Of a DNA stretch of 14,252 nucleotides, positions 97-14,252 are shown piece after piece. Each line of letters opens with the position of its first letter. The first letter of the stretch is position 1. The position numbers were made by a program, and so were the translations under genes. The stretch covers positions 1 to 14,252 of the forward strand of contig JBCCQY010000194.1 of assembly GCA_039208735.1 (NCBI GenBank), written 5' to 3'. The notes below the pieces were generated by a model. It ran no database searches, was not told the origin of the DNA, and saw only the letters and a list, made by a program, of their open reading frames with translations. The DNA is from Myxococcota bacterium. GTDB lineage: Bacteria; Myxococcota_A; UBA796; GCA-2862545.

Positions 97-3000
97 ATGA
101 ACGCGTTGTTGGCCCTGCTCGAACGGCGCCGTTTGATCGGCGCCATCGTTGCGCTGCTCGTGGGCGTCGGCCTGGTGGCTTGGGCGACGATGGTGCGACA
201 AGAAGATCCGACGTTCGAAGGACGGTTTGCCAGCGTTGTGGTGCCATGGCCAGGGGCCGACCCGCTCCGGGTGGAGCGGCTCCTCGTTCAGCCCCTCGAG
301 GATGCGTTGGCTGACGTGCCCGAAATTCGGCGCATCGAAGCGACTGCGCGCACCGGCGTGGCCGTGCTCACCCTCGAGCTGCGCGATCACATCTACGAGA
401 CCGACGATGCGTGGGACGAGGTGCGGACCCAGCTCGCCGCCGCCGATCTGGCGCTGCCCGAGGGTTCGGGTCCTGTGGACCTCGACACCGGAGTCGGCGA
501 CCCGGCCAGTGTCGTGCTCCTGCTGACCGGCCACGACGACTTGCTCGTGTTGCGTCGGGCGGCTCGGGAACTCGAGGATGCGTTGCTGCTCGTGCCCGGC
601 GTGTCACGGGTGGAGCGCATCGCCGATCCCGGCGAGCAAGTCACGGTTCGACTCGAACCCGCGATGGCGTCGCGGCTCGACCTGGACCCCGGACGGTTGG
701 CGAGCGTTCTGCAGGCCCGCAACGCGGTCACCCCCAGCGGCAATGTCGTGGTCGACGGCCGGAGCGCGGTGCTGGCACCCAAGGTCGAGCTGCCCGATCT
801 CGAGGACTTCCGAAAGACCCCTTGGGTGCTTCCGGACGGTTCAGCGGTGCCCCTTGGCGAACTCGCTCGGGTGACCCTCGAACCTTCTTCGCCAGCGAGT
901 GAACGGGTGCTGTTCGACGGTCGACCCGCCGTCGGATTGGCCGTGATTCCTGAACTCCCGCAGGATCTGGTTTCGTTTGGGGATCGGGTGGATACGGTTC
1001 TCGCCGCCGCCACGCCGAGCCTTGAAGGCGTGTCCGTCGAACGATTCGCGTACCAGCCGGAACACGTGCGGGATCGACTTGGCGACCTCACGCAGACCCT
1101 GTTGTTCTCGATGGCTATCGTCGCAGGGGTGCTGCTGCTGGCCATGGGGTTCCGACTGGGGCTTGTCGTGGCGAGCGTGGTGCCGCTTGTGGCGTTGGGC
1201 ACCGTTGCGATCTACGCGATGGGCGGCGGGGTTCTCCACCAGATCTCGATTGCGGCCCTCGTGCTTGCGCTGGGCCTTCTCGTCGACAACGCCATCGTGG
1301 TGGCCGAGACCGTGCAGCGCCACCTTGACGATGGGGTGCCGGCGCTCGAGGCCGCCCGGCGTGCGGTGCTGGAACTCGGGGTTCCCCTGGGCACCGCCAC
1401 GGGCACGACGGTAGCGGCGTTCGTCCCGATGTGGCTTGCGGGCGGGGGGACGGCCGACTTCACCCGTGCCATCCCCGTCGTCGTCGTGACCGCATTGGTG
1501 CTGTCGTACTTCTTTGCCTTGGCCGTAACGCCCGCACTCGCCGCCCTGTTCCAGCGTCCGACGGCCGCCGCGTCGCAGAGCCGCCTCGATGGCCTCGCCT
1601 TGCGGCTGGGGCGCGCGGTGGTGGCCCGCCCCGGCTGGGCGGTCACCGCGGTGGGCGGCCTGCTCGTGCTGGCACTCGCGATGTTGCCGGCCGTGCGGCA
1701 GCAGTTCTTTCCGCTGTCGGACCGGGCCCGCGTGTTGGTGACCATCGAATTGCCCGAGGGGGCGCACCTCTCCGAGACCCGCCGAATCGTAGAGCGGCTC
1801 GATCGCAAGGTGGCGAATCTCCCCGATGTTGAGCGACGAACCGCATTCATCGGACGGGGACCCCCTCGCTTTTACTACAACCTCAACAACACGCCACAAA
1901 GCCCCCATGCGGCAACCCTCGTGATCGATGCGGCGTCTTCCGAGGCGGTGCCCGAACTCGTCGCGAGGGTGCGACAGCTCGCCCGCGACTTGCCCGAGGC
2001 CACCGTCGTGCCCCGCCGCTTGCAGCAGGGGCCGCCGGTGGGGTCGCCGGTCGAGGTCCGGTTGGAAGGCGCCGACCTCGATGAGCTGGGCGCGGCCGCC
2101 GAAGCGGTGACCCGTGCGCTACGGGACTTGCCCGAGACCCGCGATGTCCATCACGACTTGGGGATCGGAGTACCCACGTTGTCGTGGGCCATCGACGATG
2201 CGGCGGCGGGTCGACGAGGCCTCGCCCGACGTGATGTCGCGTTGTCGCTGTTGGGACGGACGCGAGGGCTGCCCGCGGGGGAGGCGCGCGGAGGACGCGA
2301 GCCGGTTCCGGTGGTCGTGACCACCCCCCAAGGCGAACGCACCCCCGTCGATGCGCTCGGGACGACGATGTTGGCTGCCCCACGCGCATTGTCGACCCCG
2401 CTGTCGGCGGTGGCTCACCAAGAGGTCACCTGGGGCCCAGCGGCGATCCGCCGGGTGGATCGCACTCGGGTCATCACGGTCGGGGCCGAACTGGTCGAAG
2501 GTGCCTCTTTCTCGGCGGTTACCGCCCACCTCGATGCCTTCCAGGCTCTGGTTCCCTCGTCGGTCGAGGTGCGGCTCGGGGGTGAAGCCGAGGGGTCGTC
2601 CGAGGCTAATGCGGCGTTGCTGCAGACCTTTCCCTTAGGGGTGGGTCTGCTGCTGCTGTTCCTGTTCCTCGAATTCGACAGCGTGCGTCGGGTTGGCATC
2701 GTGTTGGTCACCGTGCCGTTGGCCGCGGTGGGGGTGATTCCCGGCTTGGCGCTGTCGGGGCAGCCGTTCGGATTCATGTCGCTGCTTGGCGTCATTGCAC
2801 TTGTGGGCGTGGTCGTGAACAACGCGATCGTGCTGCTCGATGTGATCGAGCATCAGCGACGGGGGGACACTCCCGTGTCCGAGGCCGTGGCCCAGGCGGT
2901 TCGGCTGCGCACCCGGCCCATCTTGCTCACCACGGGCACCACGGTGGTAGGAATGCTGCCCCTTGCCTTGTCGAGCAGTCCCCTGTGGCCGCCGCTCGCG

Positions 3001-4377
3001 TGGGCGATGATCAGCGGGCTGGTGGCCTCGACGGGGCTCACGTTGGTGGCGGTCCCCGCGCTCTACCAGTTGCTGGTCGGTCGCGATTCGGGCCGGTGGC
3101 TCGCGGGGTTGGGGCCGGCGGTGGCGGGGCTCCTCCTTGCGACCCCCGCCCTTGGCGCCGAGCTGACGTTTGCCGAGACCGTGGCCGCGGGACGTGAAGC
3201 GCCGACGGCCCAGGTGGCGCGTCACGATGTCGAAGCGGCGGAAGCCACCCAACGAACCGCCCGCCGCTCGGCGTTTGCGCCGGTCGTGACGGGCTCGGTG
3301 AGCAGCTACCGGCGGGATGCCCCGCTTGAGGTCGAGTTTGAGCTGCCGCCGCTGCCGGGCCTGGACGATCTAGGTCCCCAACGTCTGGTTCAGCAGCCGG
3401 AATCGCTGACCTCGGCCGGCGCCGACGTTCGTGTGCCGATCGTCGATGCAGGAGCGATCGCGCGGATCGCGCCCGCCAAGCGGGCACGGGTGGCGGCGGA
3501 ACATGCCGCCGACCGAGCCGAGGAACTCTCAGCGCAGGCCGCCGCCGACGCTTGGCTCGACGTGCGACGCCTCGATGCGGAACGGCAGGCCAACCGAGCC
3601 TACGTCGAAGCCCTTGCGTCACTGCACGCGGACCTGACCCGCCGGTACGAGGCTCGACTCGTGGTCGAGGCCGATGTGCTGCGGGCCGAGGTGGCCCTGC
3701 TGGATGCGCAACAGGATGGCCGGCGCCTCGATGTGGCCCGCCGCACCGCGACGCTTCGGTTGGGGGCGGTGCTCGGGCGGACCGATGCGGTTGAGCCACA
3801 AGGGCCGCTCCCCGTCATCACGGCGGCTCGCAAAGACGGGGTGCGATCGGATCTCGTGGCCCAGGATGCGGCCATTCGGTCGCTGCGAGCGCAGCGGTCG
3901 GCCGTGTGGGCGGAGGGGCTGCCGTCGGTCGAGGGCTATGGCGCCTATCGATTCGTGGGCCAGGACAACCTCGTCGACAACGATTGGTTGGAGGTGGGCG
4001 TCGTGGCGTCATGGACCCCGATGGCCCGAGGAACGCGGCCCAGTCGCGCGCGCACGTTGGGCGCCCAACTGGCCAGGGCAGAAGCCGAACGTCGCCAGCT
4101 CGCGTTGGCGATCGAGGTCGAACGTGCGGCCGCGGAGGCCGAATCCGAGCTGGCCTCGTCCGAGGTGGAGGTCCGGACGCGTGCGGTCGAGCAGGCCGAA
4201 CTCGCTGCGACCCAGGTGCGCGACCGCTTTGACCGGGGCCTGGCGACGCTCACCGACTTGCTTCAGGCCGAGGCCGACCTGCGCAACCAACGGACCCGCC
4301 GCGAGGTGGCCCAAATCGAAGCGGTCCGAGCCGCCGTGCGTCGTGCCGTGGCGCGTGGAGGCTGGGCGACCGATTAG
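97..4377 (+). CDS. RND efflux permease (AcrB/AcrD/AcrF family) fused to a C-terminal TolC-like outer membrane factor
   Basis: 1426-aa ORF with GGGGG just upstream of the ATG. Residues ~1-995 have RND architecture: TM1, periplasmic domain, TM2-6 with GLLVDNAIVVAE, 'QQFFPLSDR', second periplasmic domain, and TM8-12 with GVVVNNAIVLLD and RTRPILLT. Residues ~1021-1426 have two OEP-like repeats ('RRYEARLVVEADVLRAEVALLDAQ', 'RDRFDRGLATLTDLLQAEADL') plus beta-strand segments. Confidence 0.93.
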   Translation: MNALLALLERRRLIGAIVALLVGVGLVAWATMVRQEDPTFEGRFASVVVPWPGADPLRVERLLVQPLEDALADVPEIRRIEATARTGVAVLTLELRDHIYETDDAWDEVRTQLAAADLALPEGSGPVDLDTGVGDPASVVLLLTGHDDLLVLRRAARELEDALLLVPGVSRVERIADPGEQVTVRLEPAMASRLDLDPGRLASVLQARNAVTPSGNVVVDGRSAVLAPKVELPDLEDFRKTPWVLPDGSAVPLGELARVTLEPSSPASERVLFDGRPAVGLAVIPELPQDLVSFGDRVDTVLAAATPSLEGVSVERFAYQPEHVRDRLGDLTQTLLFSMAIVAGVLLLAMGFRLGLVVASVVPLVALGTVAIYAMGGGVLHQISIAALVLALGLLVDNAIVVAETVQRHLDDGVPALEAARRAVLELGVPLGTATGTTVAAFVPMWLAGGGTADFTRAIPVVVVTALVLSYFFALAVTPALAALFQRPTAAASQSRLDGLALRLGRAVVARPGWAVTAVGGLLVLALAMLPAVRQQFFPLSDRARVLVTIELPEGAHLSETRRIVERLDRKVANLPDVERRTAFIGRGPPRFYYNLNNTPQSPHAATLVIDAASSEAVPELVARVRQLARDLPEATVVPRRLQQGPPVGSPVEVRLEGADLDELGAAAEAVTRALRDLPETRDVHHDLGIGVPTLSWAIDDAAAGRRGLARRDVALSLLGRTRGLPAGEARGGREPVPVVVTTPQGERTPVDALGTTMLAAPRALSTPLSAVAHQEVTWGPAAIRRVDRTRVITVGAELVEGASFSAVTAHLDAFQALVPSSVEVRLGGEAEGSSEANAALLQTFPLGVGLLLLFLFLEFDSVRRVGIVLVTVPLAAVGVIPGLALSGQPFGFMSLLGVIALVGVVVNNAIVLLDVIEHQRRGDTPVSEAVAQAVRLRTRPILLTTGTTVVGMLPLALSSSPLWPPLAWAMISGLVASTGLTLVAVPALYQLLVGRDSGRWLAGLGPAVAGLLLATPALGAELTFAETVAAGREAPTAQVARHDVEAAEATQRTARRSAFAPVVTGSVSSYRRDAPLEVEFELPPLPGLDDLGPQRLVQQPESLTSAGADVRVPIVDAGAIARIAPAKRARVAAEHAADRAEELSAQAAADAWLDVRRLDAERQANRAYVEALASLHADLTRRYEARLVVEADVLRAEVALLDAQQDGRRLDVARRTATLRLGAVLGRTDAVEPQGPLPVITAARKDGVRSDLVAQDAAIRSLRAQRSAVWAEGLPSVEGYGAYRFVGQDNLVDNDWLEVGVVASWTPMARGTRPSRARTLGAQLARAEAERRQLALAIEVERAAAEAESELASSEVEVRTRAVEQAELAATQVRDRFDRGLATLTDLLQAEADLRNQRTRREVAQIEAVRAAVRRAVARGGWATD

Positions 4378-4733
4378 AAGCGGTCGGCCTGTTGCAAGAC
4401 CCAAAGGCCGGCGGCCACCGCGTTGGGGCACGACCGGTCGATGGTGCGGCGAACCACGTCGAGTCGCACCCACGACGACCCGTTGGGCTTGAGGATGGTG
4501 GTCTTGTCGAGCCAGCCCAGCGTGGTGGAACCGCTCGATTCGATGGCCAGCCGGCTGCTGCGCGAGCGGACGTAGCCTACGGTGCGACCGCTCTTTTCAA
4601 TGCGCCAGTCTGACCCGTTTCGCTTTGCGTAGCCGATGGTGTGGCTCGACCGTTCGATGCGCTCACCCACGCAGCGAATCGGGTTGGTTTGCGCATGGGC
4701 CGAACCCAACAGCACGATTCCGAGTCCCAACAT
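4374..4733 (-). CDS. Small secreted hypothetical protein with short beta repeats (possibly 5-fold beta-flower-like)
   Basis: GGAGG RBS 4 nt before the ATG. Short signal peptide ending AHA|Q. Internal repeats RIERSSHTIGY / RIEKSGRTVGY / AIESSGSTTLGW / TILKPNGSSW. C-terminal hydrophobic helix AVAAGLWVL. Fills the gap between two confident genes. Confidence 0.8.
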   Translation of the reverse strand: MLGLGIVLLGSAHAQTNPIRCVGERIERSSHTIGYAKRNGSDWRIEKSGRTVGYVRSRSSRLAIESSGSTTLGWLDKTTILKPNGSSWVRLDVVRRTIDRSCPNAVAAGLWVLQQADRF

Positions 4734-4765
4734 GGAGCCTCCACAGGCCCGTTATCCGATGCGGG

Positions 4766-6352
4766 TCAGAGCCGGCCTTCGTAGCCGCGACGTTCGATGG
4801 GGCACCACGCAAGCCGCAAGCCGCTCATCGGCGTGCGCAGCCAGTCTCGAAGTTCACGAGGATCGTCAAAGCGTTCCGCGGTCGCCCCAAACGCTCGGGC
4901 GAGCCCCACGTAGTCGGTGCCGGTCACGTCCGCGCGCCCGAAGTCGACGCCAACGTTGGGCAGCCCACGCTCCCGCTGCTTCTTTTCGATGAGGGCCAAG
5001 CTGCGGTCATCGATCACGACGATGGTGAGGTTTACCCCTAAGTCTCGTGCGGTGGCCAGCTCGCCGAGCGCCATTTCGAAGCCCCCGTCGCCCACCACGG
5101 CCACGGTGGGAGCCCCTGAACCCAGGGCGGCGCCAATCGCGACCGGCACGGCGTAGCCCATCGTGCACAGCCCGCTCGACTGCAGCAGGGTGCCTGGCTG
5201 CTCTGCGCGCCACATCTGGCTCAAGAGGATGCGGTGGGCTCCGGTGTCGACGGTGACGACGGTTTCGGGGGTGACGGCGTCGCGGATGGCGGTGATGAGC
5301 CCGGCCGGTCCCGGACCATCCTCGGCGGGGAACGCCACGGCGAGGGCCTGGCGTACCGATGCGCCGGTCCACATCGATGAGGAGCGCTCGATGCGACCCA
5401 ACAGGGCGTTGAAGGTGGCGTCGATGGGCCCGACCAAGCGCAGGTCGGTGCGATGCTCGGGGGGCCGCTCGGACGACACGCTGACGTCGATGACGGTCGT
5501 GGAGGTCTTGAACGGCTCGAGCCAACCGGATCGCATCTCGACTGCGTCGTAGCCAGCGAGGAGCACCACATCGGCCTCGGCCACCATGGGCAGGAGCAGC
5601 GCATCGGCCTTGGGCGACAATCCTGCCGCACTGACCCACAGGGGATGGGAATGCGGCATTGCGCCAATCGCCTTGTACGTGCCCAGGACAGGGGCGCGAA
5701 GTCGCTCCACGAGGCTTAGGAAGTGGGGGGAGCGCATGGCCTCGAGCCCCACCATCACCAAGGGACGCTCGGCGCGGGAAAGGCGTTTGGCGGCGCGGTC
5801 GAGGGTGGAGGCCTTGGGAATGGCGACCTGGCGCCGCAGCGGCGTGATGGGCGCTCCGGGGGCTTCGGCGACGTCGAGAGGCAGGTCGAAGTGGACGGGG
5901 CCCGGGCGACCCTCACGGGCTCGCCACAATCCTTCTTCGATGTCGCGCGCCGCGGTGGCGGCGGTGAGTCGGTAGCTCTCCTTCACGAGGGGGGCGAGGA
6001 GCGCCCGTTGGTCAAAGACCTGGTGCGTGAAGGCCACACCGTGATGGTCGGCCACGTTGCCCGTGATCACGATGAGAGGCACCCGATCGAGCTTGGCCTG
6101 CGCCACGGCGTTGGGGCAATTGGCCACCCCAGGCCCCACCGTGGCCACCAGCAACCCCGGGGCGCCGGTCACGTGGTGAAGCCCTTCGGCCAGTAGGCCC
6201 GCCCCCGTCTCATGGCGGGTGAGCACGAACCGAATCCCCGCGGCGCGAAGCGCTTCGAGCAAGGTGAGGGTTTCTCCGCCTGGAATGCCAAAACCAGTCC
6301 GGATTCCGGCCTGGACCAGCGCATGGGCGAGATGTTCAGCCACGGTTTGCAT
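4766..6352 (-). CDS. Thiamine diphosphate-dependent enzyme, acetolactate synthase large subunit-like
   Basis: Motifs FGIPGG, RHE (catalytic Glu), TVGPGVAN, GRPGPVHFDLPLD, DTGAH, SSGLCTMGYAVP and GDGGFEM-x-DD. Family-like N-terminus begins at MQTVAEHLA (ATG at 6352). The ORF-track start at 6397 is probably too far upstream. Confidence 0.9.
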   Translation of the reverse strand: MQTVAEHLAHALVQAGIRTGFGIPGGETLTLLEALRAAGIRFVLTRHETGAGLLAEGLHHVTGAPGLLVATVGPGVANCPNAVAQAKLDRVPLIVITGNVADHHGVAFTHQVFDQRALLAPLVKESYRLTAATAARDIEEGLWRAREGRPGPVHFDLPLDVAEAPGAPITPLRRQVAIPKASTLDRAAKRLSRAERPLVMVGLEAMRSPHFLSLVERLRAPVLGTYKAIGAMPHSHPLWVSAAGLSPKADALLLPMVAEADVVLLAGYDAVEMRSGWLEPFKTSTTVIDVSVSSERPPEHRTDLRLVGPIDATFNALLGRIERSSSMWTGASVRQALAVAFPAEDGPGPAGLITAIRDAVTPETVVTVDTGAHRILLSQMWRAEQPGTLLQSSGLCTMGYAVPVAIGAALGSGAPTVAVVGDGGFEMALGELATARDLGVNLTIVVIDDRSLALIEKKQRERGLPNVGVDFGRADVTGTDYVGLARAFGATAERFDDPRELRDWLRTPMSGLRLAWCPIERRGYEGRL

Positions 6353-6384
6353 CCGGCTCGGCCTAGCGGGCGGGTTTGCTTTCT

Positions 6385-6413
6385 GCAATCCGTTCAAAAG
6401 TGGAACGGTTTGC
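6385..6413. promoter_or_regulatory. Imperfect inverted repeat, candidate transcription-factor operator in a divergent promoter region
   Basis: GCAATCCGTTC-AAAAGTG-GAACGGTTTGC, 10 of 11 arm positions complementary. Lies in the AT-richer spacer between divergent starts at 6352 (-) and 6461 (+). Confidence 0.5.
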
Positions 6414-6460
6414 CGCCCGGACCGGTCGGGAGTGTGGGACCATCAGGCTCGGGAGGTACC

Positions 6461-6997
6461 GTGTCCACAGCTCGTGTTTGGCCAGATCAGGAGCCGGAAC
6501 TGCTCCACCTGCTGCCCCTCGTTTACGTCGCCTGGAGCGATCTTGAACTCGACGACCAGGAGATCGAAGCCATCCGCGAGGCGGCAGGCTGTCAGCAGGC
6601 CGACTCCGGGGTGTGTGCCGCACTTGGGTCGTGGCTCGATCCCGGCCAGCCACCTTCGGCGGGCGAACTGGCCCGCATCCAGCGCTGGGTTCGATCCGGC
6701 ACGGTCCAAGCACAAGCCCCTTCCACCGTCCGTACGGTCCTCGAAGACGCACTCGGACTGTCGGTCGAAGCAGCCCGTAAGGCCCAGCTTGCGGCCCCCT
6801 ACGTTACGCGTGGCCAGCTCCCACGCCGCCTGAGCCCGGGTTCGACGTGGCCGCGCTTGCGGATTTGCTCGACGGCCCCTACCCCGAGGAACGCCAACGG
6901 GTGCGTACTCTCCTTGAAGAACCGGTGTTTACCCACACCCTGGGACTCTCCACAGACCAGCAACGCGAACAAGTGCTGCGCTGGGTTGTTCGCCTAG
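6461..6997 (+). CDS. N-terminal (TerB-like) part of a frameshifted acyl-CoA oxidase. True coding portion probably 6461 to ~6830; the rest is out-of-frame run-on
   Basis: GGAGG at 6452-6456 precedes GTG 6461. Sequence LLPLVYVAWSDLELDDQEIEAIR...WLDPGQPPS resembles TerB-like 'AxxDGxxxxxE' helices and, from recall, the N-terminal extension of long bacterial acyl-CoA oxidases. After ~6830 the downstream frame carries the protein-like sequence. Confidence 0.6.
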   Translation: MSTARVWPDQEPELLHLLPLVYVAWSDLELDDQEIEAIREAAGCQQADSGVCAALGSWLDPGQPPSAGELARIQRWVRSGTVQAQAPSTVRTVLEDALGLSVEAARKAQLAAPYVTRGQLPRRLSPGSTWPRLRICSTAPTPRNANGCVLSLKNRCLPTPWDSPQTSNANKCCAGLFA

Positions 6998-8703
6998 GTG
7001 AAGAAGGCTTCGCGCGAGCCGCCTTTCCTGGTGTGACGTCGGAACACCCTACGATGGGGCCCTTCCTCGCCGCCTTCGAAACCCTCGCGACCTTCGACCT
7101 TGGGCTTTGGGTCAAGACGGGGGTGCAATTCGGGCTCTTTGGCGGCTCGATCTTCTTTTTAGGTACCGAGCGGCATCACGCCTTGCTCGACGACATTGCC
7201 GCCGCGCGACGGCTCGGGTGCTTTGCGATGTCCGAGACGGGCCACGGCAGCAACGTGCGCCAGCTCGGGACCCGGGCGCGCTACGATGCCGCAACTGACG
7301 AGATCGTGGTCCACACGCCCTCGCCAGGCGACCGCAAGGACTACGTCGGCAACGCGGGCGCCCACGGCACCCTCGCCACGGTCTTCGCGCAGCTCGAGGT
7401 GGATGGTGCCGACCACGGCGTACACGCGATCCTGGTTCCGATTCGGGATGAGTCAGGCCAGCCCATGCCCGGGGTGACCCTCATCGACAATGGCGTGAAG
7501 ATGGGCCTCAACGGCGTCGACAACGGCCGCATTGCGTTCGATGAGGTGCGCGTGCCCCGAACCGCCCTGCTCGACCGCTTTGGGCGCATCGAGGAAGATG
7601 GTTCCTACGCAAGCCCGATCGCCAGCCCCTCTCACCGGTTCTTCACGATGATCGGGACGCTCGTGGGGGGGCGGGTCAGTGTCGCCAATGCGGCCCTGTC
7701 GACCTCGAAGGTCGCGTTGGCCATCGCGATTCGCTACAGTCACCGCCGTCGTCAGTTCGGAGCGCCGGGAGAGCCCGAGGTGACCATTGCGAGCTACCCG
7801 TCGCACCAACGGCGTCTGATGCCTCCGCTTGCCATGACCTTGGCGCTCGATCTGGCCCTCGAAGACCTCACCCGCCAGTACGAGTCGCTCGCCCTGGTCG
7901 AGACCGACAAGCGTGAACTCGAAGCTCTGGCCGCGGGCATGAAGGCCATCACCACATGGCATTGCACGGCGACGGTGCAAGCCTGCCGCGAAGCCTGTGG
8001 CGGAGCCGGCTACCTGGCTGTGAATCGCTTTGCCGCACTCAAGGCCGACTCCGATGTCTTCACCACGTTTGAAGGCGACAACACGGTGCTGCTGCAGCTC
8101 GTGACGCGAGGATTGCTCACCGGATTCCGCCAGCAGTTTGCCGACGATCGGGTCACCGGGTTCGTGCGGTTCCTCGTCGACCGAGCACAGTCCACGTTCC
8201 ATCGCCTCAACCCCCTCGAAACCCGCGCTACGAGTACCGAAGCCCTTCGCGATCCTACGTTCCAGCTCGACTTGCTGCGCCATCGCACACAAGATCAGTT
8301 GATTGGGCTGGCGTCGCAGCTGCGGAGCTTGGTGGGCGAGGGTCTCGACGCCACCCAGGCGTTCAATCAGGTGCAGAACGCAGCCCTGTCGCTGGCCCAC
8401 GCGCACCTCGAACAGCACGTGCTGGAGCGGGTGATCGAAGTCGAAGCGTCAGCGCTAGACCCCAGCTTGGGGCCCGTCCTGACTACGGCTCGGAACCTCG
8501 TGGCGTTGCACCGTATTGAATGGGATCTCGGTTGGTTTTTGGAGCACGGCTACATGGCCGGGGGCCAAGCCAGTGCAATCCGACGAGAGGTCGAGGCCCT
8601 GTGTGGGGAGTTGTCGGCCTTCGGCCTTGGCATTGTCGAAGCGTTCCGCTTGCCTCGACTCTCGGCGCCCATCGCCGATCTCACCGAGCCGGCCGAGACT
8701 TAA
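6847..8703 (+). CDS. Acyl-CoA oxidase / acyl-CoA dehydrogenase family protein (catalytic part; full gene probably 6461-8703 with a frameshift)
   Basis: ACOX-type motifs: VQFGLFGG, GCFAMSETGHGSNV, KMGLNGVDNG, AIRYSHRRRQFG, CREACGGAGY, TFEGDNTVLLQ (catalytic Glu), plus C-terminal ACOX helical domain. The frame is open from 6781 and GTG 6847 has no clear RBS. Confidence 0.88.
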   Translation: MAALADLLDGPYPEERQRVRTLLEEPVFTHTLGLSTDQQREQVLRWVVRLGEEGFARAAFPGVTSEHPTMGPFLAAFETLATFDLGLWVKTGVQFGLFGGSIFFLGTERHHALLDDIAAARRLGCFAMSETGHGSNVRQLGTRARYDAATDEIVVHTPSPGDRKDYVGNAGAHGTLATVFAQLEVDGADHGVHAILVPIRDESGQPMPGVTLIDNGVKMGLNGVDNGRIAFDEVRVPRTALLDRFGRIEEDGSYASPIASPSHRFFTMIGTLVGGRVSVANAALSTSKVALAIAIRYSHRRRQFGAPGEPEVTIASYPSHQRRLMPPLAMTLALDLALEDLTRQYESLALVETDKRELEALAAGMKAITTWHCTATVQACREACGGAGYLAVNRFAALKADSDVFTTFEGDNTVLLQLVTRGLLTGFRQQFADDRVTGFVRFLVDRAQSTFHRLNPLETRATSTEALRDPTFQLDLLRHRTQDQLIGLASQLRSLVGEGLDATQAFNQVQNAALSLAHAHLEQHVLERVIEVEASALDPSLGPVLTTARNLVALHRIEWDLGWFLEHGYMAGGQASAIRREVEALCGELSAFGLGIVEAFRLPRLSAPIADLTEPAET

Positions 8704-8954
8704 GGGAAGAGGACCGTCACTTCCACGTGGTCGGGAAAGTCCGCTGAGCCAAGGGACTGTACGCTCTCGTCGTCACCGAGTGCCCACGTGGCATCGTCGA
8801 AGGCTTCGGGGGTAATCGCGGTGCGGAGCATTCGCTCTACGTCGTCACGCTTGGGCACCCTCACGCGCAACACATTGGCGCCGACCCGCGTTGCGGTGAG
8901 TCCTGGCACCGCCATGAAGCGTCGGCGGATCAGTAGCTCGGGGACGTCATCCAT
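8700..8954 (-). CDS. Small hypothetical protein (84 aa)
   Basis: ATG at 8954 lies 4 nt downstream of the DUF3224 stop. Protein-like alpha/beta composition (MDDVPELLIRRRF...HVEVTVLFP). Fills the gap exactly. The upstream part of the ORF-track call is a shadow of DUF3224. Confidence 0.65.
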   Translation of the reverse strand: MDDVPELLIRRRFMAVPGLTATRVGANVLRVRVPKRDDVERMLRTAITPEAFDDATWALGDDESVQSLGSADFPDHVEVTVLFP

Positions 8955-8958
8955 GGGG

Positions 8959-9354
8959 TCACTCAGGCCAGGTGAACTCGAGGTCGAAGGCGTGATCTTG
9001 GCCCTCGCGAGGCGTGATCGTAGCCGAGCCTGCGATGCCGGTCCATTCGCCGGTGCCTGAGCCTTCGAGGATGCGCCAGTGGGCTTGGGGAGCTTGGTCC
9101 GGCCCCGCAATGGCATCATGGAGCAGGATGAAGCCACCCTTCCGGCCGAAGAGGACGCCGGTGATGTGCTCATACCCGCAGTAGGCTCGAAGGTCGGACG
9201 GACCGTGAGCCATGGTGAGGCACGCTGCGCTCTGGCCCTCGAGATCGCCTTCGAAGGTCTTGTCGACGACCGTGCTCACGAATCTCGCCCCTGGGGCATC
9301 CCGCTTGTCGGTCTCTTCCCAACGGTCGATCTTGAAGCTTGCGTGGGCTTTCAT
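8959..9354 (-). CDS. DUF3224 family protein (allene-oxide-cyclase-like beta barrel)
   Basis: GGAGG RBS before ATG 9354. Characteristic segments KTFEGDLEGQS, YCGYEHITGVLFGRKGGFILLH and ILEGSGTGEWTGIAG. Confidence 0.88.
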   Translation of the reverse strand: MKAHASFKIDRWEETDKRDAPGARFVSTVVDKTFEGDLEGQSAACLTMAHGPSDLRAYCGYEHITGVLFGRKGGFILLHDAIAGPDQAPQAHWRILEGSGTGEWTGIAGSATITPREGQDHAFDLEFTWPE

Positions 9355-9452
9355 GAGGCCTCCGCACACGGGTGTAGGCCACCGACCGGATGCGGGCTTG
9401 AACAAACGCGACAGGCCCTTGACGAGGAGGGGTTCGAGGTGCAGAAAATCGA

Positions 9453-9938
9453 ATGCCGAGTTCACTTCCCATCGCTGTGAGGCTGACGCCTGCGTTCGCG
9501 AGCGGACGGGTGCGTCTGGCGGATGTGTTGGCTCACGTTGCAGGACCGGCCGCGCGCGGGCACGAGTCCCGCTGGCGACTCTCTTCCCGCGAATGGACGT
9601 TCGCCCGTCGGGTGCTCACCGAGGCAACCCGACTTTGGCTGTGGCGAACCGATCCGGGGGCGTTTGCGGGTGACTTCGTGCTCGTCGACATGTCGAGCGC
9701 AGAGCCAGAACGTCGCCCGGCGTGGGTGGTCGATCTCAAGTGTGGCGCCCCCCTCAAAGTCGGGGGCGGCGGAGCGGGGAACTCGCTGGTTCAGGCTGCG
9801 CGCGCCATGGCGTGGCTCGAAGCGCAAGGCATCGTGGGACCCGGCGCACCGGTGCTCGCCACAGGCGATGGCGCCGTGGTCTTCGACCTCTGCACCCTTA
9901 GGATTCCGGGGCCTGGGTCGCGGGGGACACCGCGTTGA
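9453..9938 (+). CDS. Hypothetical protein with a PD-(D/E)XK nuclease-like motif arrangement
   Basis: 161 aa, purine-rich GAGG upstream. Helix Glu47, GD74FVLVD strand and WVVD94LK96 strand. Best candidate for the 9355-9898 gap. Confidence 0.7.
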   Translation: MPSSLPIAVRLTPAFASGRVRLADVLAHVAGPAARGHESRWRLSSREWTFARRVLTEATRLWLWRTDPGAFAGDFVLVDMSSAEPERRPAWVVDLKCGAPLKVGGGGAGNSLVQAARAMAWLEAQGIVGPGAPVLATGDGAVVFDLCTLRIPGPGSRGTPR

Positions 9939-11166
9939 TGAGCCGGCCCACGGTGAGGCCCTGAACGAGGACCGAGAACACGACAATCGCGTAGGTCGCC
10001 GTGAGCACGTAGGTGCGCCCCTCGAACTCGGGCAGCGACAAGGCGAGGGCCACCGAGATGCCCCCTTTGATGCCACCCCAGATGAGGATGGGCTGCGTGC
10101 CGGGTGCGAAATCCATGAAGCGGCTCCACACGGACAGTGGAATCAACACCGACACCGCCCGCGCGGCAAGGTTGATCCCGACCAGGAGCACGGCCGCGAG
10201 CATCGCGGACTCCGAAAAGGCGAACGCCACCACCTCGAGCCCGACCAGCAAGAACAGCACTGCGTTCAGGGCCTCGTCGATGAACGACCACACCCGATCG
10301 AGCGTTTGAAGAGTGTCGTCCGACATGGCGCGTTCTCGGCCGCGGTTGCCAATGAGGAGCCCTGCGATGACACAGGCGAGGGGGGCCGAGGTGTGCAGCC
10401 GAAAGGCGATGCTGCTGATTGCCATCACCAGCGCAAACGTGATGAGGACTTCGAGGTTCGGCTCGTCGAGTTGCTGCAGGAGCCGCTCGGTCAGCCAACC
10501 GAGCCCAAAGCCGAGCAAGACTCCTCCGATCACCTCGACGCCCACCAGTTCGAGGACCGATAGCAGGGAGGCCTCCCCCCCGTGGCCCTCGGTGCCGGCC
10601 GCGATCCCCACGAGCACGGTGAACACCACCACACCGACGCCATCGTTGAACAGCGACTCACCGACGACCTTGATCTCCACGGACTTCGGAGCTCCCGCAG
10701 CTCGCATGATGCCCAACACGGCGACCGGGTCCGTCGGCGAGATGAGGGCCCCGAACACGAGGCACCACATCAACGGCACTTCGAGTCCCAGCGCGCTGAA
10801 CACGAGGTAGGCGCCGAGGCCGATGATCGCGGTCGAAATCAGCACCCCGACCGTCGCCAACGTAGCGATGGGGGCAAGCCACTTTCGAAGCCGATCGAAG
10901 TCGGTGTGCAGGGCGCCGGCAAAGAGGAGGAAGCCCAGCATCCCGTGCATCAGCGCTTCGGTGAAGTCGATGTCTTCGAGGACCAGTTCGCGAAGGGCGT
11001 CTCCCAACCCGAGCGAGGGCGAGAGCGCATCCACGCCAAGGACAAACAACGACGCGAGCAGACCAGCGATCGTCAGCGCGACCCCGCTCGGTAGTTTGAG
11101 CGTGAGGTGGTTGAGTGCGCCGAACCCGGCGGCAAGCACGATGAGGAGCGTCACGATCTCGAACAT
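9898..11166 (-). CDS. nhaP: Na+/H+ antiporter, CPA1 / NhaP type
   Basis: About 13 hydrophobic segments. Motifs FLLFAGAL, ISPTDPVAV, GESLFNDGVG, LNAVLFLLVG, WGGIKGGISVALAL and VVFSVLVQGLT. GAAGG RBS. Confidence 0.92.
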   Translation of the reverse strand: MFEIVTLLIVLAAGFGALNHLTLKLPSGVALTIAGLLASLFVLGVDALSPSLGLGDALRELVLEDIDFTEALMHGMLGFLLFAGALHTDFDRLRKWLAPIATLATVGVLISTAIIGLGAYLVFSALGLEVPLMWCLVFGALISPTDPVAVLGIMRAAGAPKSVEIKVVGESLFNDGVGVVVFTVLVGIAAGTEGHGGEASLLSVLELVGVEVIGGVLLGFGLGWLTERLLQQLDEPNLEVLITFALVMAISSIAFRLHTSAPLACVIAGLLIGNRGRERAMSDDTLQTLDRVWSFIDEALNAVLFLLVGLEVVAFAFSESAMLAAVLLVGINLAARAVSVLIPLSVWSRFMDFAPGTQPILIWGGIKGGISVALALSLPEFEGRTYVLTATYAIVVFSVLVQGLTVGRLINAVSPATQAPES

Positions 11167-11211
11167 GGGCCTTCCGAAACGTCACGGCGGAATCGCCGGA
11201 GGCCCATCTTG

Positions 11212-12030
11212 TCAGAGCATCAGAGACCAGGCGGGGCGCGTGATTCGAAGTCCGAGGAAGGTCAGCGCGGGTCCGTACTTCTTGCGGCTCCACAAAAAGC
11301 GTGCCTGGCCCATGAGGAAGGGCGCCGCGAGGAACGCATCGCCGAGCGCCTCGGATTCACGGGCGTTGATAGCCTTCAATTCCTCGCGTGTGGAGCCTGC
11401 TTTGAAGGTGCGCTTACGGCCTTCGGCAACCCAGGACTCGGCGAGGGCCTGCGCCCGGGGCATCAGCTCATCGTGGGGCACGACTTCATCGATCATGCCC
11501 ACTTCGTGGGCATCGGTGGCGGTGGGCTTCCACCCTTCCTGGCCCAACATGCGCTCGGCGTTGGCCTCGCCAATGAGGCGCGGCAGGTGGACCGTCGAAC
11601 AGCCCTCGGGCGAAACCCCGAGTCGGGCGAAGGGGGTTGAGAAGGTGGCTTTTTCGGAAGCGATGATGCCATCACACAGGGTGGCCGAGGTGACCGTCGC
11701 GCCAATCGCGGGACCATTCACCGCGACGAGCAGGGGCTTGTCGAAATCGAGGAAGCGATCGAAGAGGGCCTGATTGGACGCCACGATGGTGTCGCGAAGC
11801 GTCCGGGGATGGCCGAGCTGGATGGTCGCCGAAAGGTTGACCCCAGCGCTGTAGTAGGGGTCGGTTCCTGTGAGCACGACCACGTTGGTCTCGTCATCGC
11901 TGGCCGCCCGAGCGAACGCATCCGCCATCGCGTTCATCATCTCGAGGGTCCACCCGTTGAGCCGCTTGGGCATGTTCATCGTCAGGGTGGTGACGCGGTT
12001 CTTCGTCGAAGCCAGGACCAAATCGCTCAT
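11212..12030 (-). CDS. Enoyl-CoA hydratase/isomerase (crotonase) family, most like delta3,delta2-enoyl-CoA isomerase
   Basis: Motifs PKRLNGW, YYSAGVNL (oxyanion hole), KPLLVAVNGPAIG and FSTPFARLGVSPEGCS. GAAGG RBS. Confidence 0.9.
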   Translation of the reverse strand: MSDLVLASTKNRVTTLTMNMPKRLNGWTLEMMNAMADAFARAASDDETNVVVLTGTDPYYSAGVNLSATIQLGHPRTLRDTIVASNQALFDRFLDFDKPLLVAVNGPAIGATVTSATLCDGIIASEKATFSTPFARLGVSPEGCSTVHLPRLIGEANAERMLGQEGWKPTATDAHEVGMIDEVVPHDELMPRAQALAESWVAEGRKRTFKAGSTREELKAINARESEALGDAFLAAPFLMGQARFLWSRKKYGPALTFLGLRITRPAWSLML

Positions 12031-12092
12031 GGGAGCCTTCTAAGCCGACGAGGTCGAGCGCTCCACGTTTGGCGAACCCACAAATTTCTGCA

Positions 12093-12683
12093 ATGTTCTT
12101 GGGGGCTCGTCGTACGGCGGTTGTGGACCCTTGGCTGGAACACAAGCAGCGGTTGCTGTCTCGTCGTCGTTGCCCGCATTGTGCGGAGCCGGCGTCCGCG
12201 CGTCGGATCCTCCAGGGTCTGCCCTGCGGCAAGTGTGGCGCTCCGCTCGAAGTTCCAGGGACCGAAGATCGCGCAGCCGAGGTGCTCGCAGCGATTCGAG
12301 CGGGCTGGAAGACCTCTCGGTACGCGGTCTACGTTGCGGTGCTTTTGGCCACCTTTTTGTCGGGCTGGGTGCCCTTGCTCGCCTCGATCGTGACCGCGGG
12401 AGCCATGATCACGGCGAATCTGACGCTGCTGCGACGCCCCCTCCGCTGGCTGTCGCCCGTACAGCGGGCGATCACACGCCTAGGCTCTCGGCTTTGGTTT
12501 GTGATGCTGTTGCTCACATCGATGGTGCTCAACACCTTGGCCGCGCCGTTGATCGCAGCATGGGGACTTGGCGCGGCGGCATCGGGCCTCATCGGGGCGG
12601 TTTCCACCTACCTGTACGTCGAAGGATCGCTGTGGCTCATCGAGCGCGCGGTCACGCGGGCTGCGACGGGGAACGAAGCATGA
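12093..12683 (+). CDS. Membrane protein with N-terminal zinc ribbon (CPHC-x14-CGKC)
   Basis: Two CxxC motifs followed by about 4 hydrophobic segments. Stop overlaps the next start (ATGA at 12680-12683). Start uncertain: ATG 12093 or GTG 12123. Confidence 0.75.
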   Translation: MFLGARRTAVVDPWLEHKQRLLSRRRCPHCAEPASARRILQGLPCGKCGAPLEVPGTEDRAAEVLAAIRAGWKTSRYAVYVAVLLATFLSGWVPLLASIVTAGAMITANLTLLRRPLRWLSPVQRAITRLGSRLWFVMLLLTSMVLNTLAAPLIAAWGLGAAASGLIGAVSTYLYVEGSLWLIERAVTRAATGNEA

Positions 12684-13489
12684 TCGAGCAGCTGTTTTCG
12701 TTGGGCACGGCTGGGATGTGGGCGGCGACGGCAACCCTGATTACCACCGCCCTGACGTCGACGGGTCGCCCGGGGGCGACGGTGTTCCTGCTCCTCGCCG
12801 TGCCCACTGCGTTGCTCGAAGCGGGCTACTGGCAGGCGCACCATTGGTTCTTTCCGCCCGCCCACACCTGGGTCCTGTGTCTGTTTGGTCTGTGGGCGGT
12901 CTTCGAGCATTTCTTTCGAGGTGAGCTGTACGGTGAGTTGATGGAGGCGTTGCCGCTCGACGGTTTGGCGGCCTTGCTCATCATTTGGCTGATGTTCATT
13001 GGCCAGGTCGCGCTGGGCACCGCTCCTGAGGGCGCGACGGTGCCGGATGTGGCGCTCGAAGTACGTCGGGCCATCCCCGTAGGACCTGCCCTGGTGCTCT
13101 TGGCGCTCACGATTCCCCTGCAGCTTGTGGTGGGCTGGGCGAGAAACCGAGTGTTTGATGTGTTGCGGGATCTCGGCTTCGGGGGAACCGCAGCGATCCT
13201 CGAGCTGATCGGCGTTACCGGGGCGGTTGTCGCGGTGGTCTTGCTTCCCGCGGTCGCACTTGGTGCCGTGGGCGTCATTGCCATTCCCGTCGTGGTCCTT
13301 GCCCTCGCCGCTCGCCTGGTCGGCAACATCGTGGACCGACAGCGACGACGTGCCTGTCCGCACTGTGGACACAACACCCGGGGGGAAGCGAGCCGTTGCC
13401 CTGCGTGTCACGGTCCATTGCCGATCGTTCGTCCCTTGGCTCCGCCGGCCGTCGTTCCTGTACTTTCGGGCGCAAGAACTCGGATGTAA
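12680..13489 (+). CDS. Multi-pass membrane protein (possibly DUF4126-like) with C-terminal zinc ribbon (CPHC-x10-CPAC)
   Basis: ATGA coupling defines the start (MIEQLFSLG). About 6-7 hydrophobic segments, then RRRACPHCGHNTRGEASRCPAC. The ORF-track extension to 12131 is a shadow of the upstream gene. Confidence 0.78.
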   Translation: MIEQLFSLGTAGMWAATATLITTALTSTGRPGATVFLLLAVPTALLEAGYWQAHHWFFPPAHTWVLCLFGLWAVFEHFFRGELYGELMEALPLDGLAALLIIWLMFIGQVALGTAPEGATVPDVALEVRRAIPVGPALVLLALTIPLQLVVGWARNRVFDVLRDLGFGGTAAILELIGVTGAVVAVVLLPAVALGAVGVIAIPVVVLALAARLVGNIVDRQRRRACPHCGHNTRGEASRCPACHGPLPIVRPLAPPAVVPVLSGARTRM

Positions 13490-13561
13490 CGCTCCAAATA
13501 GAGCATAGGGGCTGGTGTACCGAGGAGAGCCGTGTGGTCTTCTTGGAGCCTGTCTGTGTCC

Positions 13562-14252
13562 ATGTCGACGTTCGGCCTTCGACGGAAGCTGACCCTGCGC
13601 TACGGCATAGGGCTCGCCCTCATCGGCGTGCTCTTTGTCGCGTCGTACGTCGGGTTGACCCAGCTCATCCATTCCCAGCAAACGGACGCGCCGACCATCA
13701 ACGTCAGCGGCCGGCAGCGCATGTTGTCGCAGCGGGTTTCGTTGCTTGCGCTCCGGTATGCGTCGGTCTCAGACCCGACGGAGCGCGCCCGAATTGCCGA
13801 TTTACTCGATCAAGCCATCGGGCTGATGGCCAGTTCGCATCAGGCGTTGACCAACGGAAGTGAGGCGCTGGGGATTTCGCAGACCCAGTCCCTCAATGTG
13901 GAAGACCTCTACGAAGGGTCCACGCGATTGAGCGGCCGGGTTGCGGAGTACCTAAAATGGGCCGAGGGCTTGCGTCAGCTCCCCGCCGGCGAGCTGCGTC
14001 CTGACCATCCTCTCCTCCTTCAGATGCTCGCGCAGTCTGAAAAACCGCTCCTCGCCGACCTGAACCAAGCGGTGTCGCTGTATGAGGCCGAGTCGTCGTC
14101 GCGTGTGGGACAGCTCGCGCAGGTGCAGCTCTACCTGCTGTTGGTGGCCCTGGGACTCATTCTGCTCGAGGCGGGCTTCATCTTCCGACTCATGGTCGAG
14201 AGCATTGTGAACCAGGTGCAAGAGCTGCAACGGAGTTCCGCGGTCATCCGCG
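13562..14252 (+). CDS. Membrane sensor with NarX/PilJ-type periplasmic four-helix domain (histidine kinase, chemoreceptor or diguanylate cyclase); 3'-truncated by the window
   Basis: Manual translation: MSTFGLRRKLTLRY, TM1 (GIGLALIGVLFVASYVGL), P-box-like DAPTINVSGRQRMLSQR, periplasmic helices ending LLADLNQAVSLYEAES, TM2 (LYLLLVALGLILLEAGFIF), then a coiled coil. No stop before the window end. Alternative in-frame GTG starts at 13532 and 13556. Confidence 0.88.
   Translation, partial: MSTFGLRRKLTLRYGIGLALIGVLFVASYVGLTQLIHSQQTDAPTINVSGRQRMLSQRVSLLALRYASVSDPTERARIADLLDQAIGLMASSHQALTNGSEALGISQTQSLNVEDLYEGSTRLSGRVAEYLKWAEGLRQLPAGELRPDHPLLLQMLAQSEKPLLADLNQAVSLYEAESSSRVGQLAQVQLYLLLVALGLILLEAGFIFRLMVESIVNQVQELQRSSAVIR

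Follow-up and report, generated by a model that had tools for sequence, protein, structure and literature searches.

A TolC-type channel encoded in frame behind a TriC/MexK-like RND permease: a probable polyprotein route to the outer membrane

Tripartite efflux pumps are generally regarded as assemblies of three gene products, and the usual view of an outer-membrane protein is that it begins as a precursor of its own with a signal at the N-terminus. In the TriABC-OpmH and MexJK systems, the RND permease is encoded separately from its outer-membrane factor (OMF), and the C-terminus of a 12-helix RND protein is located in the cytoplasm. The permease that we describe here shares with these systems from Pseudomonas aeruginosa (PDB 6vej; MexK 20yy, 9xwg) the architecture with 12 transmembrane (TM) helices, and they are its closest solved relatives by a wide margin. 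In the window, the 14,252-nucleotide stretch of DNA from a member of the Myxococcota, the permease is in contrast joined to an OMF in one frame. Our search of the full-text literature, with subscription journals and transporter databases outside its scope, yielded no paper whose title or opening abstract lines describe an RND-OMF fusion or its processing. Such a fusion is likewise not described in the accessible portions of PMC8277102, PMC10434189, PMC8301774, PMC9360617, PMC4486845, and PMC8809574.

Permease and channel in one reading frame

The first gene of the window (97-4377, + strand) is an uninterrupted frame of 1426 codons whose 1426-residue product matches the Pfam family ACR_tran at residues 12-993 (E 3e-136), followed by two OEP repeats. 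A 12-helix RND permease (residues 12-993), a linker of 28 residues and an OMF of the TolC fold are hence laid out in one frame (Table 1), a departure from the rule that tripartite RND pumps derive from three separate genes. One contig of sequencing run X1 spans positions 2811-4600, including the junction, with 0 differences and 0 gaps relative to the window; it does not provide independent support because the window may itself derive from X1. Runs X2, X4 and X5 leave 3081-3388 uncovered and thus say nothing about the junction. The independent support for the fusion is its conservation in relatives. An assembly artefact or a recent loss of a stop codon was rejected since the fusion is kept in dozens of divergent proteins.

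Table 1. Coordinates of the segments encoded by the fused gene
Feature	Position (nt)	Strand	Basis
RND permease domain, residues 1-993, 12 TM helices, TriC/MexK-like (HAE1-type)	97..3075	+	Pfam, PDB sequence matches, AF2
Cytoplasmic linker / n-region, residues 994-1003 (VGRDSGRWLA), without Met	3076..3105	+	Sequence, n/h/c model
Putative h-region of an internal signal peptide (13th membrane-crossing segment), about residues 1004-1015	3106..3141	+	Hydropathy; model parse h = 1004-1014; AF2 helix 998-1013
c-region TPALGA, residues 1016-1021, with the predicted SPase I site behind G1020 (nt 3156/3157) or behind A1021 (nt 3159/3160)	3142..3159	+	n/h/c model
OMF, TolC-type, non-lipoprotein, residues 1022-1426, two OEP repeats, four beta strands; stop codon 4375-4377	3160..4377	+	Pfam, AF2, Foldseek

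Pfam and AF2 identify the first half as an RND permease (PF00873) with 12 TM helices and two large periplasmic domains. The AF2 model of the first 1040 residues shows an RND protein with twelve membrane helices at a mean pLDDT of 89, and a search of the PDB sequences retrieves 6vej, the TriABC transporter (4e-114), and MexK (1e-109), with the next match at 1e-54. The RND motif residues are D397-N398 in TM4, N908-N909 in TM10 and R940 in TM11; among the relatives, D397 and N398 are invariant and R940 is nearly so. AcrB carries K940 at the proton-relay site, where the permease of the window has R940. This site contains one Asp together with an Asn (D397-N398) in the window, in contrast to the D407-D408 pair of AcrB (PMC8277102, in its accessible part).

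The second half is an OMF (PF02321) by Pfam, AF2 and Foldseek, with two OEP repeats, four beta strands and the helices of the alpha-barrel. The AF2 model of residues 851-1426 has a mean pLDDT of 92, and Foldseek aligns it with VceC (3.5e-16) and with OprM, OprN and TolC (about 1e-12 to 1e-14). Conservation is 32% for the OMF half and 72% for the RND half, and among 40 relatives identity to the window amounts to 81% for TM12 and 16-24% for the linker. The same genome encodes a stand-alone OMF on contig C113 that is 37% identical to the OMF of the window and possesses its own Met and its own signal peptide.

Upstream of the fused gene, no end of an adaptor (MFP) gene is present in the 96 bases that precede the ATG, where the contig ends; the same-genus orthologues differ in this respect. 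The first 130 bases of the contig have no match elsewhere in the genome at E below 0.24, and the missing adaptor could thus not be traced; 24 MFP matches are present in the genome. The copy in the window may have lost its adaptor or may have been separated from it. A TTGACA hexamer is found just upstream of the ribosome-binding site of the RND gene. Downstream, the genes of region 4374-14252 show no apparent connection to the pump; they encode a TPP enzyme, an acyl-CoA oxidase, a DUF3224 protein, a Na/H exchanger, an enoyl-CoA hydratase and a sensor with a PilJ domain, along with several small products without a Pfam match. The acyl-CoA oxidase gene (6212-8703, + strand) appears to start in one frame (about 6490-6800, without a Pfam match) and to continue in another, which probably reflects a frameshift near 6780-6850, either real or an assembly error.

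Distribution and history of the fusion

A search with residues 960-1426, restricted to proteins of 784-2496 residues, gave 41 matches among 7991 scored candidates, and all except one of these (40/41) carry both Pfam domains. We found 93 fused sequences, 87 of them with distinct linkers; when sequences at least 70% identical were taken out, a non-redundant set of 74 resulted. The OMF half is matched in 20 of 41 related genomes, including all four of the same genus. Ten regions of relatives, picked for their long open frames, were fetched and all 10 contain an in-frame fusion with an adaptor gene just upstream; at these ten loci, the directly adjacent adaptor is a feature shared with TriABC-OpmH and MexJK. 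Among 80 genome loci found via the C-terminal part of the RND protein, seven are fused by profile, one (L109) is apparently fused, and the rest are unfused. L109 (4936-8526) comes from a record titled Limnochordia (Bacillota); its RND sequence reads on in frame through a signal-like linker and reaches an OMF-like start ahead of the contig end, and its position in the tree is distant.

The genome of the window itself encodes three RND-OMF fusions, on contigs C194, C173, and C130, and one close stand-alone OMF on C113. The two further fusions (C173:464-4700 and C130:20491-25000) both have signal-like linkers. The paralogous cluster at C113:24299-29243, where a separate OMF gene is divergent from mfp-rnd, offers a natural unfused control; it was called unfused from the separate OMF beside the RND gene, which runs off the contig end.

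In an IQ-TREE tree built from 60 fused and 81 unfused RND domains (141 in all), the fused/unfused label changes 10 times, and at least nine of these changes are forced by well-supported branches; the tree is a quick one with no bootstrap and a midpoint root, composition bias was flagged in 76 rows, and the changes are counted irrespective of direction. The RND-OMF fusion has arisen or reverted several times. The clade of the window comprises 70 members, of which 53 are fused and 17 are not, and the C113 paralogue is one of the nearest rows; it is a clade of the TriC/MexK-like, non-lipoprotein type and has named members in the Myxococcota and Acidobacteriota. The C130 fusion falls with its kin into a fused group of its own, an indication that it goes back to a separate fusion event. 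For most of the 17 unfused members, our profile search found no OMF in the fetched flank. In two unfused members of the clade (Nannocystales, Nannocystaceae; L032:6380-6700 and L033:5760-6100), the OMF start overlaps the RND stop (ATGA and TGATG), so that the fused and unfused states appear close, one small change apart. The fusion likely originated when neighboring rnd and omf genes lost the stop codon and the start codon that had separated them.

Such fusions have consequences for annotation, as their OMF halves are hidden under 'RND permease' names; the name 'multidrug efflux pump subunit AcrB/outer membrane protein TolC' is given to two of the relatives by JGI. According to the accessible part of PMC8809574, 118 proteins without a predicted signal peptide were dropped when TolC-like proteins were surveyed, and this filter would be expected to lose RND-OMF fusions.

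The linker as a candidate internal signal peptide

The sequence-only reading had recognized a signal-peptide-like linker behind the last RND helix, devoid of a lipobox Cys. Its residues and coordinates proved correct: from R996 (nt 3082) to T1024 (which ends at nt 3168), the stretch reads ...VPALYQLLVG-RDSGR-WLAGLGPAVAGLLLA-TPALG-AELT and contains neither Cys nor Met. The n-region has a net charge of +1 in the window (two Arg, one Asp) and is net positive in 63 of the 74 non-redundant relatives; the h-region of the window measures 11-12 residues; and a Pro is present 2-8 residues before the cut in 60/74 linkers. The linker thereby exhibits the hallmarks of a Sec/SPase I signal, i.e., a charged n-region, a short h-region, and a helix breaker together with small residues at -3 and -1, with the exception of an N-terminal position behind a start Met, as this signal is internal (residues 994-1021). 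A lipoprotein (SPase II) signal was ruled out, given that the lipobox Cys is found in 0/74 fused relatives, in keeping with its absence from the window, and so was a Tat signal (RR-x-[FL]-hydrophobic in 1/74; no adjacent RR in the window linker).

Linkers were scored with a home-made n/h/c model, not SignalP, which was trained on 72 of 75 stand-alone OMF N-termini (three lipobox-like ones were left out). It was seeded with the known Ala preference and restricted to h-regions of 7-16 residues, so that h length is not free. The stand-alone set stems from a word-based search (4 weak matches among 7999 candidates) and a HMMER search, which supplied most of it. Fused linkers reach a median score of 9.3 against 2.6 for shuffled versions, with 56/74 at p≤0.05; the remaining 18 do not stand out from shuffles of the whole linker, and one of these belongs to L021, a close orthologue (p=0.30). 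As this test mostly detects a hydrophobic stretch, we added TM1 and TM7 of the same proteins as controls, both of them uncut in-to-out anchors that precede large periplasmic domains. The total n/h/c score fails to separate linkers (8.9) from TM1 (8.8) or TM7 (8.1), and the median 19-residue hydropathy is 1.86 for linkers, 2.06 for TM1, 2.23 for TM7 and 1.61 for stand-alone signals.

The cleavage region is what sets the linkers apart. Its median score is 4.8 in fused linkers (n=59 full-length) and 4.6 in stand-alone OMF signals, compared with 1.3 for TM1 and 1.9 for TM7; within the same protein, the linker scores above TM1 in 54/58 cases and above TM7 in 52/59. Ala occupies position -1 in 53/59 linkers, 9/58 TM1 segments and 20/59 TM7 segments. 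The n/h/c pattern is thus kept among the fusion homologs, a conservation on which the sequence-only reading depended, and their linkers score like the signals of stand-alone OMFs, unlike the uncleaved anchors of the RND protein. When only the 14 residues after the h-region were shuffled, 44/74 linkers reached p≤0.05 and 30/74 failed. A motif of the form [AVSG]x[AGS] follows TM7 as well, in 34/59 proteins, and the Ala-rich proteins of GC-rich genomes easily yield A-x-A; furthermore, the fused relatives share descent and do not represent independent samples.

The linker of the window gave p=0.049 with whole-linker shuffles and p=0.01 when the 14 residues after the h-region were shuffled. With a score of 5.8, compared to a median of 11.9 and a 10th percentile of 7.2 for stand-alone signals, it is a modest signal peptide by itself, and the strong case consequently rests on the family. 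The form of the linker is kept while its sequence drifts (16-24% identity), which is the behavior of a signal peptide, and the predicted cut is positioned just before the start of the mature chain of stand-alone relatives. AF2 places a helix at residues 998-1013 in both models, with the c-region as coil in blocks of mean pLDDT 57-60; in the RND context, pLDDT falls below 50 at 1007-1022 and the linker has no confident place on the RND protein. AF2 cannot show cleavage, and the linker appears in it as a low-confidence helix. The signal-like form could in part be a relic of an ancestral OMF signal; its persistence across such divergent sequences argues for selection.

Proposed biogenesis, alternatives, and comparison with known systems

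We consider it likely that the polyprotein is cut by signal peptidase I, either at 1020/1021 or at 1021/1022. The sequence-only reading had placed the cut near 1020/1021; its cleavage-type c-region holds up, while the exact bond is ambiguous and may be 1021/1022 instead. Our model scores LGA/E (1021/1022) at 5.8 and ALG/A (1020/1021) at 3.4, and orthologues with P-A-R-A fit the 1020/1021 register. According to the accessible part of PMC9360617, SPase I obeys a -3/-1 rule, and precursors stay membrane-anchored when cleavage fails. TolC assembly involves BAM/TAM (PMC8809574, in its accessible part). The genome of the window contains three genes for SPase I that pass the cut-off, as well as matches to the BamA family.

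These data lend themselves to the following scheme for the biogenesis of the pump. Since the 12-helix RND protein ends in the cytoplasm, the OMF half needs one more in-to-out crossing. The Sec translocon would insert the h-region (residues 1004-1015) as a 13th helix and thread the OMF half out, probably co-translationally, whereupon SPase I would cut after G1020 or A1021. The freed OMF would enter the periplasm and assemble into a trimer in the outer membrane via BAM/TAM, and the RND protein would retain the used signal, as an additional helix in a loose position, unless trimming removes it. The two products and an adaptor (MFP) would then form an ordinary tripartite pump, with permease and channel made 1:1 from one start codon. 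On balance, we regard it as likely that this is a polyprotein route to the outer membrane, in which the channel is exported behind a finished 12-helix pump and freed by SPase I at about residue 1021, pump and channel are fixed at 1:1, the pump is left with a 13th helix, and the arrangement has been repeatedly gained and lost, as the loss of one stop and one start codon suffices.

The chain might instead be separated by another protease or only in part, or the OMF half might be released without serving its own pump, with the RND protein using another OMF. The genome of the window holds many other OMF genes, conservation of the OMF half lags far behind that of the RND half (32% versus 72%), and 17/70 RND proteins of the clade are unfused, most of them with no OMF found by profile search in the fetched flank. 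We nevertheless find this scenario unlikely: the OMF half is intact, has the confident fold of a TolC-type protomer and is kept in 53/70 members of the clade, and the residues conserved at -1/-3 follow specifically the SPase I pattern.

Another explanation, which we judge very unlikely, posits that the OMF precursor is translated separately, from an in-frame start nested close to where TM12 ends, and that the full-length chain is either a by-product or subject to degradation. Candidate starts do exist in the frame of the window, namely GTG at V984 (SD -5.0), TTG at L992 (no SD, +1.9) and TTG at L1005 (SD -5.1), and a weak SD is compatible with an internal start, because the stand-alone OMF on C113 is made from a real start whose SD, at only -5.6, is of comparable weakness; the SD energy of the RND start is -8.4. 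Across the family, the picture is different. Met occurs between TM12 and the h-region in 10/74 linkers, against 17.4 expected from composition; no in-frame ATG, GTG or TTG follows TM12 in 8 of the 18 loci with DNA, the two closest orthologues among them, and the candidates elsewhere share no position; in only 2/18 loci does a candidate fall within the strongest tenth of background SD energies. An internal translation start, which the sequence-only reading itself had named as an outcome that would overturn it, was accordingly not found as a conserved feature among the 74 linkers and 18 DNA loci, and it would not account for the lack of an RND stop codon throughout.

The least credible alternative, which we deem highly improbable, is the one raised in the sequence-only reading of an uncleaved 13th helix that turns the protein into a covalent inner-to-outer-membrane tether: the h-region is predicted to be helical, there is overlap in total signal score with genuine TM anchors, and 6/74 relatives have at least 35 residues after the h-region, yet this stretch counts 8 residues in the window and 10 at the median, with at most 24 in 68/74, whereas by our estimate a tether must bridge at least about 120 Å, for which about 35 residues in extended form are needed, so that the short spacer renders an uncut tether geometrically implausible, and the conserved cleavage motif is one that a tether would avoid. 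The accessible parts of two structural sources give the dimensions, with a periplasmic RND part 40+30 Å tall and an OMF alpha-barrel of 100 Å with the equatorial domain at its middle (PMC8277102), and a TolC chain that begins at the level of the equatorial domain (PMC4486845).

Should the proposed SPase I cut be real, signal peptidase I would process a native polyprotein about 1000 residues into the chain, and an outer-membrane substrate could be delivered from a co-translationally inserted inner-membrane protein. It would also suggest a route to co-express pumps at a fixed ratio, testable in E. coli. The finished pump is probably ordinary, and the new part is probably its route of biogenesis.

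The comparison with described proteins brings out what is shared and what is not. The OMF of the window has the fold of TolC, VceC and OprM. These proteins carry an N-terminal signal, whereas the signal of the window OMF is internal, Met-less and located behind a membrane protein of 993 residues. TolC lacks a lipid anchor and its chain begins at the equatorial level (PMC4486845, in its accessible part); the window OMF does likewise, with a lipobox in 0/74 fused relatives. With respect to TriABC-OpmH and MexJK, the window differs in that it unites in one frame what these systems keep in separate RND and OMF genes. A bacterial precedent for the polyprotein reportedly exists in FbcH of Bradyrhizobium japonicum, the cytochrome b-c1 precursor that Thony-Meyer and co-workers are said to have described in 1991: one gene reportedly yields two proteins, a polytopic membrane protein being followed by an internal signal-like linker that is cut at Ala-x-Ala, and both products are said to remain in the inner membrane. 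FbcH and the window would have in common that one bacterial gene gives rise to two proteins via an internal signal; they would differ in that the second product of the window would travel on to the outer membrane, for which it would need BAM/TAM.
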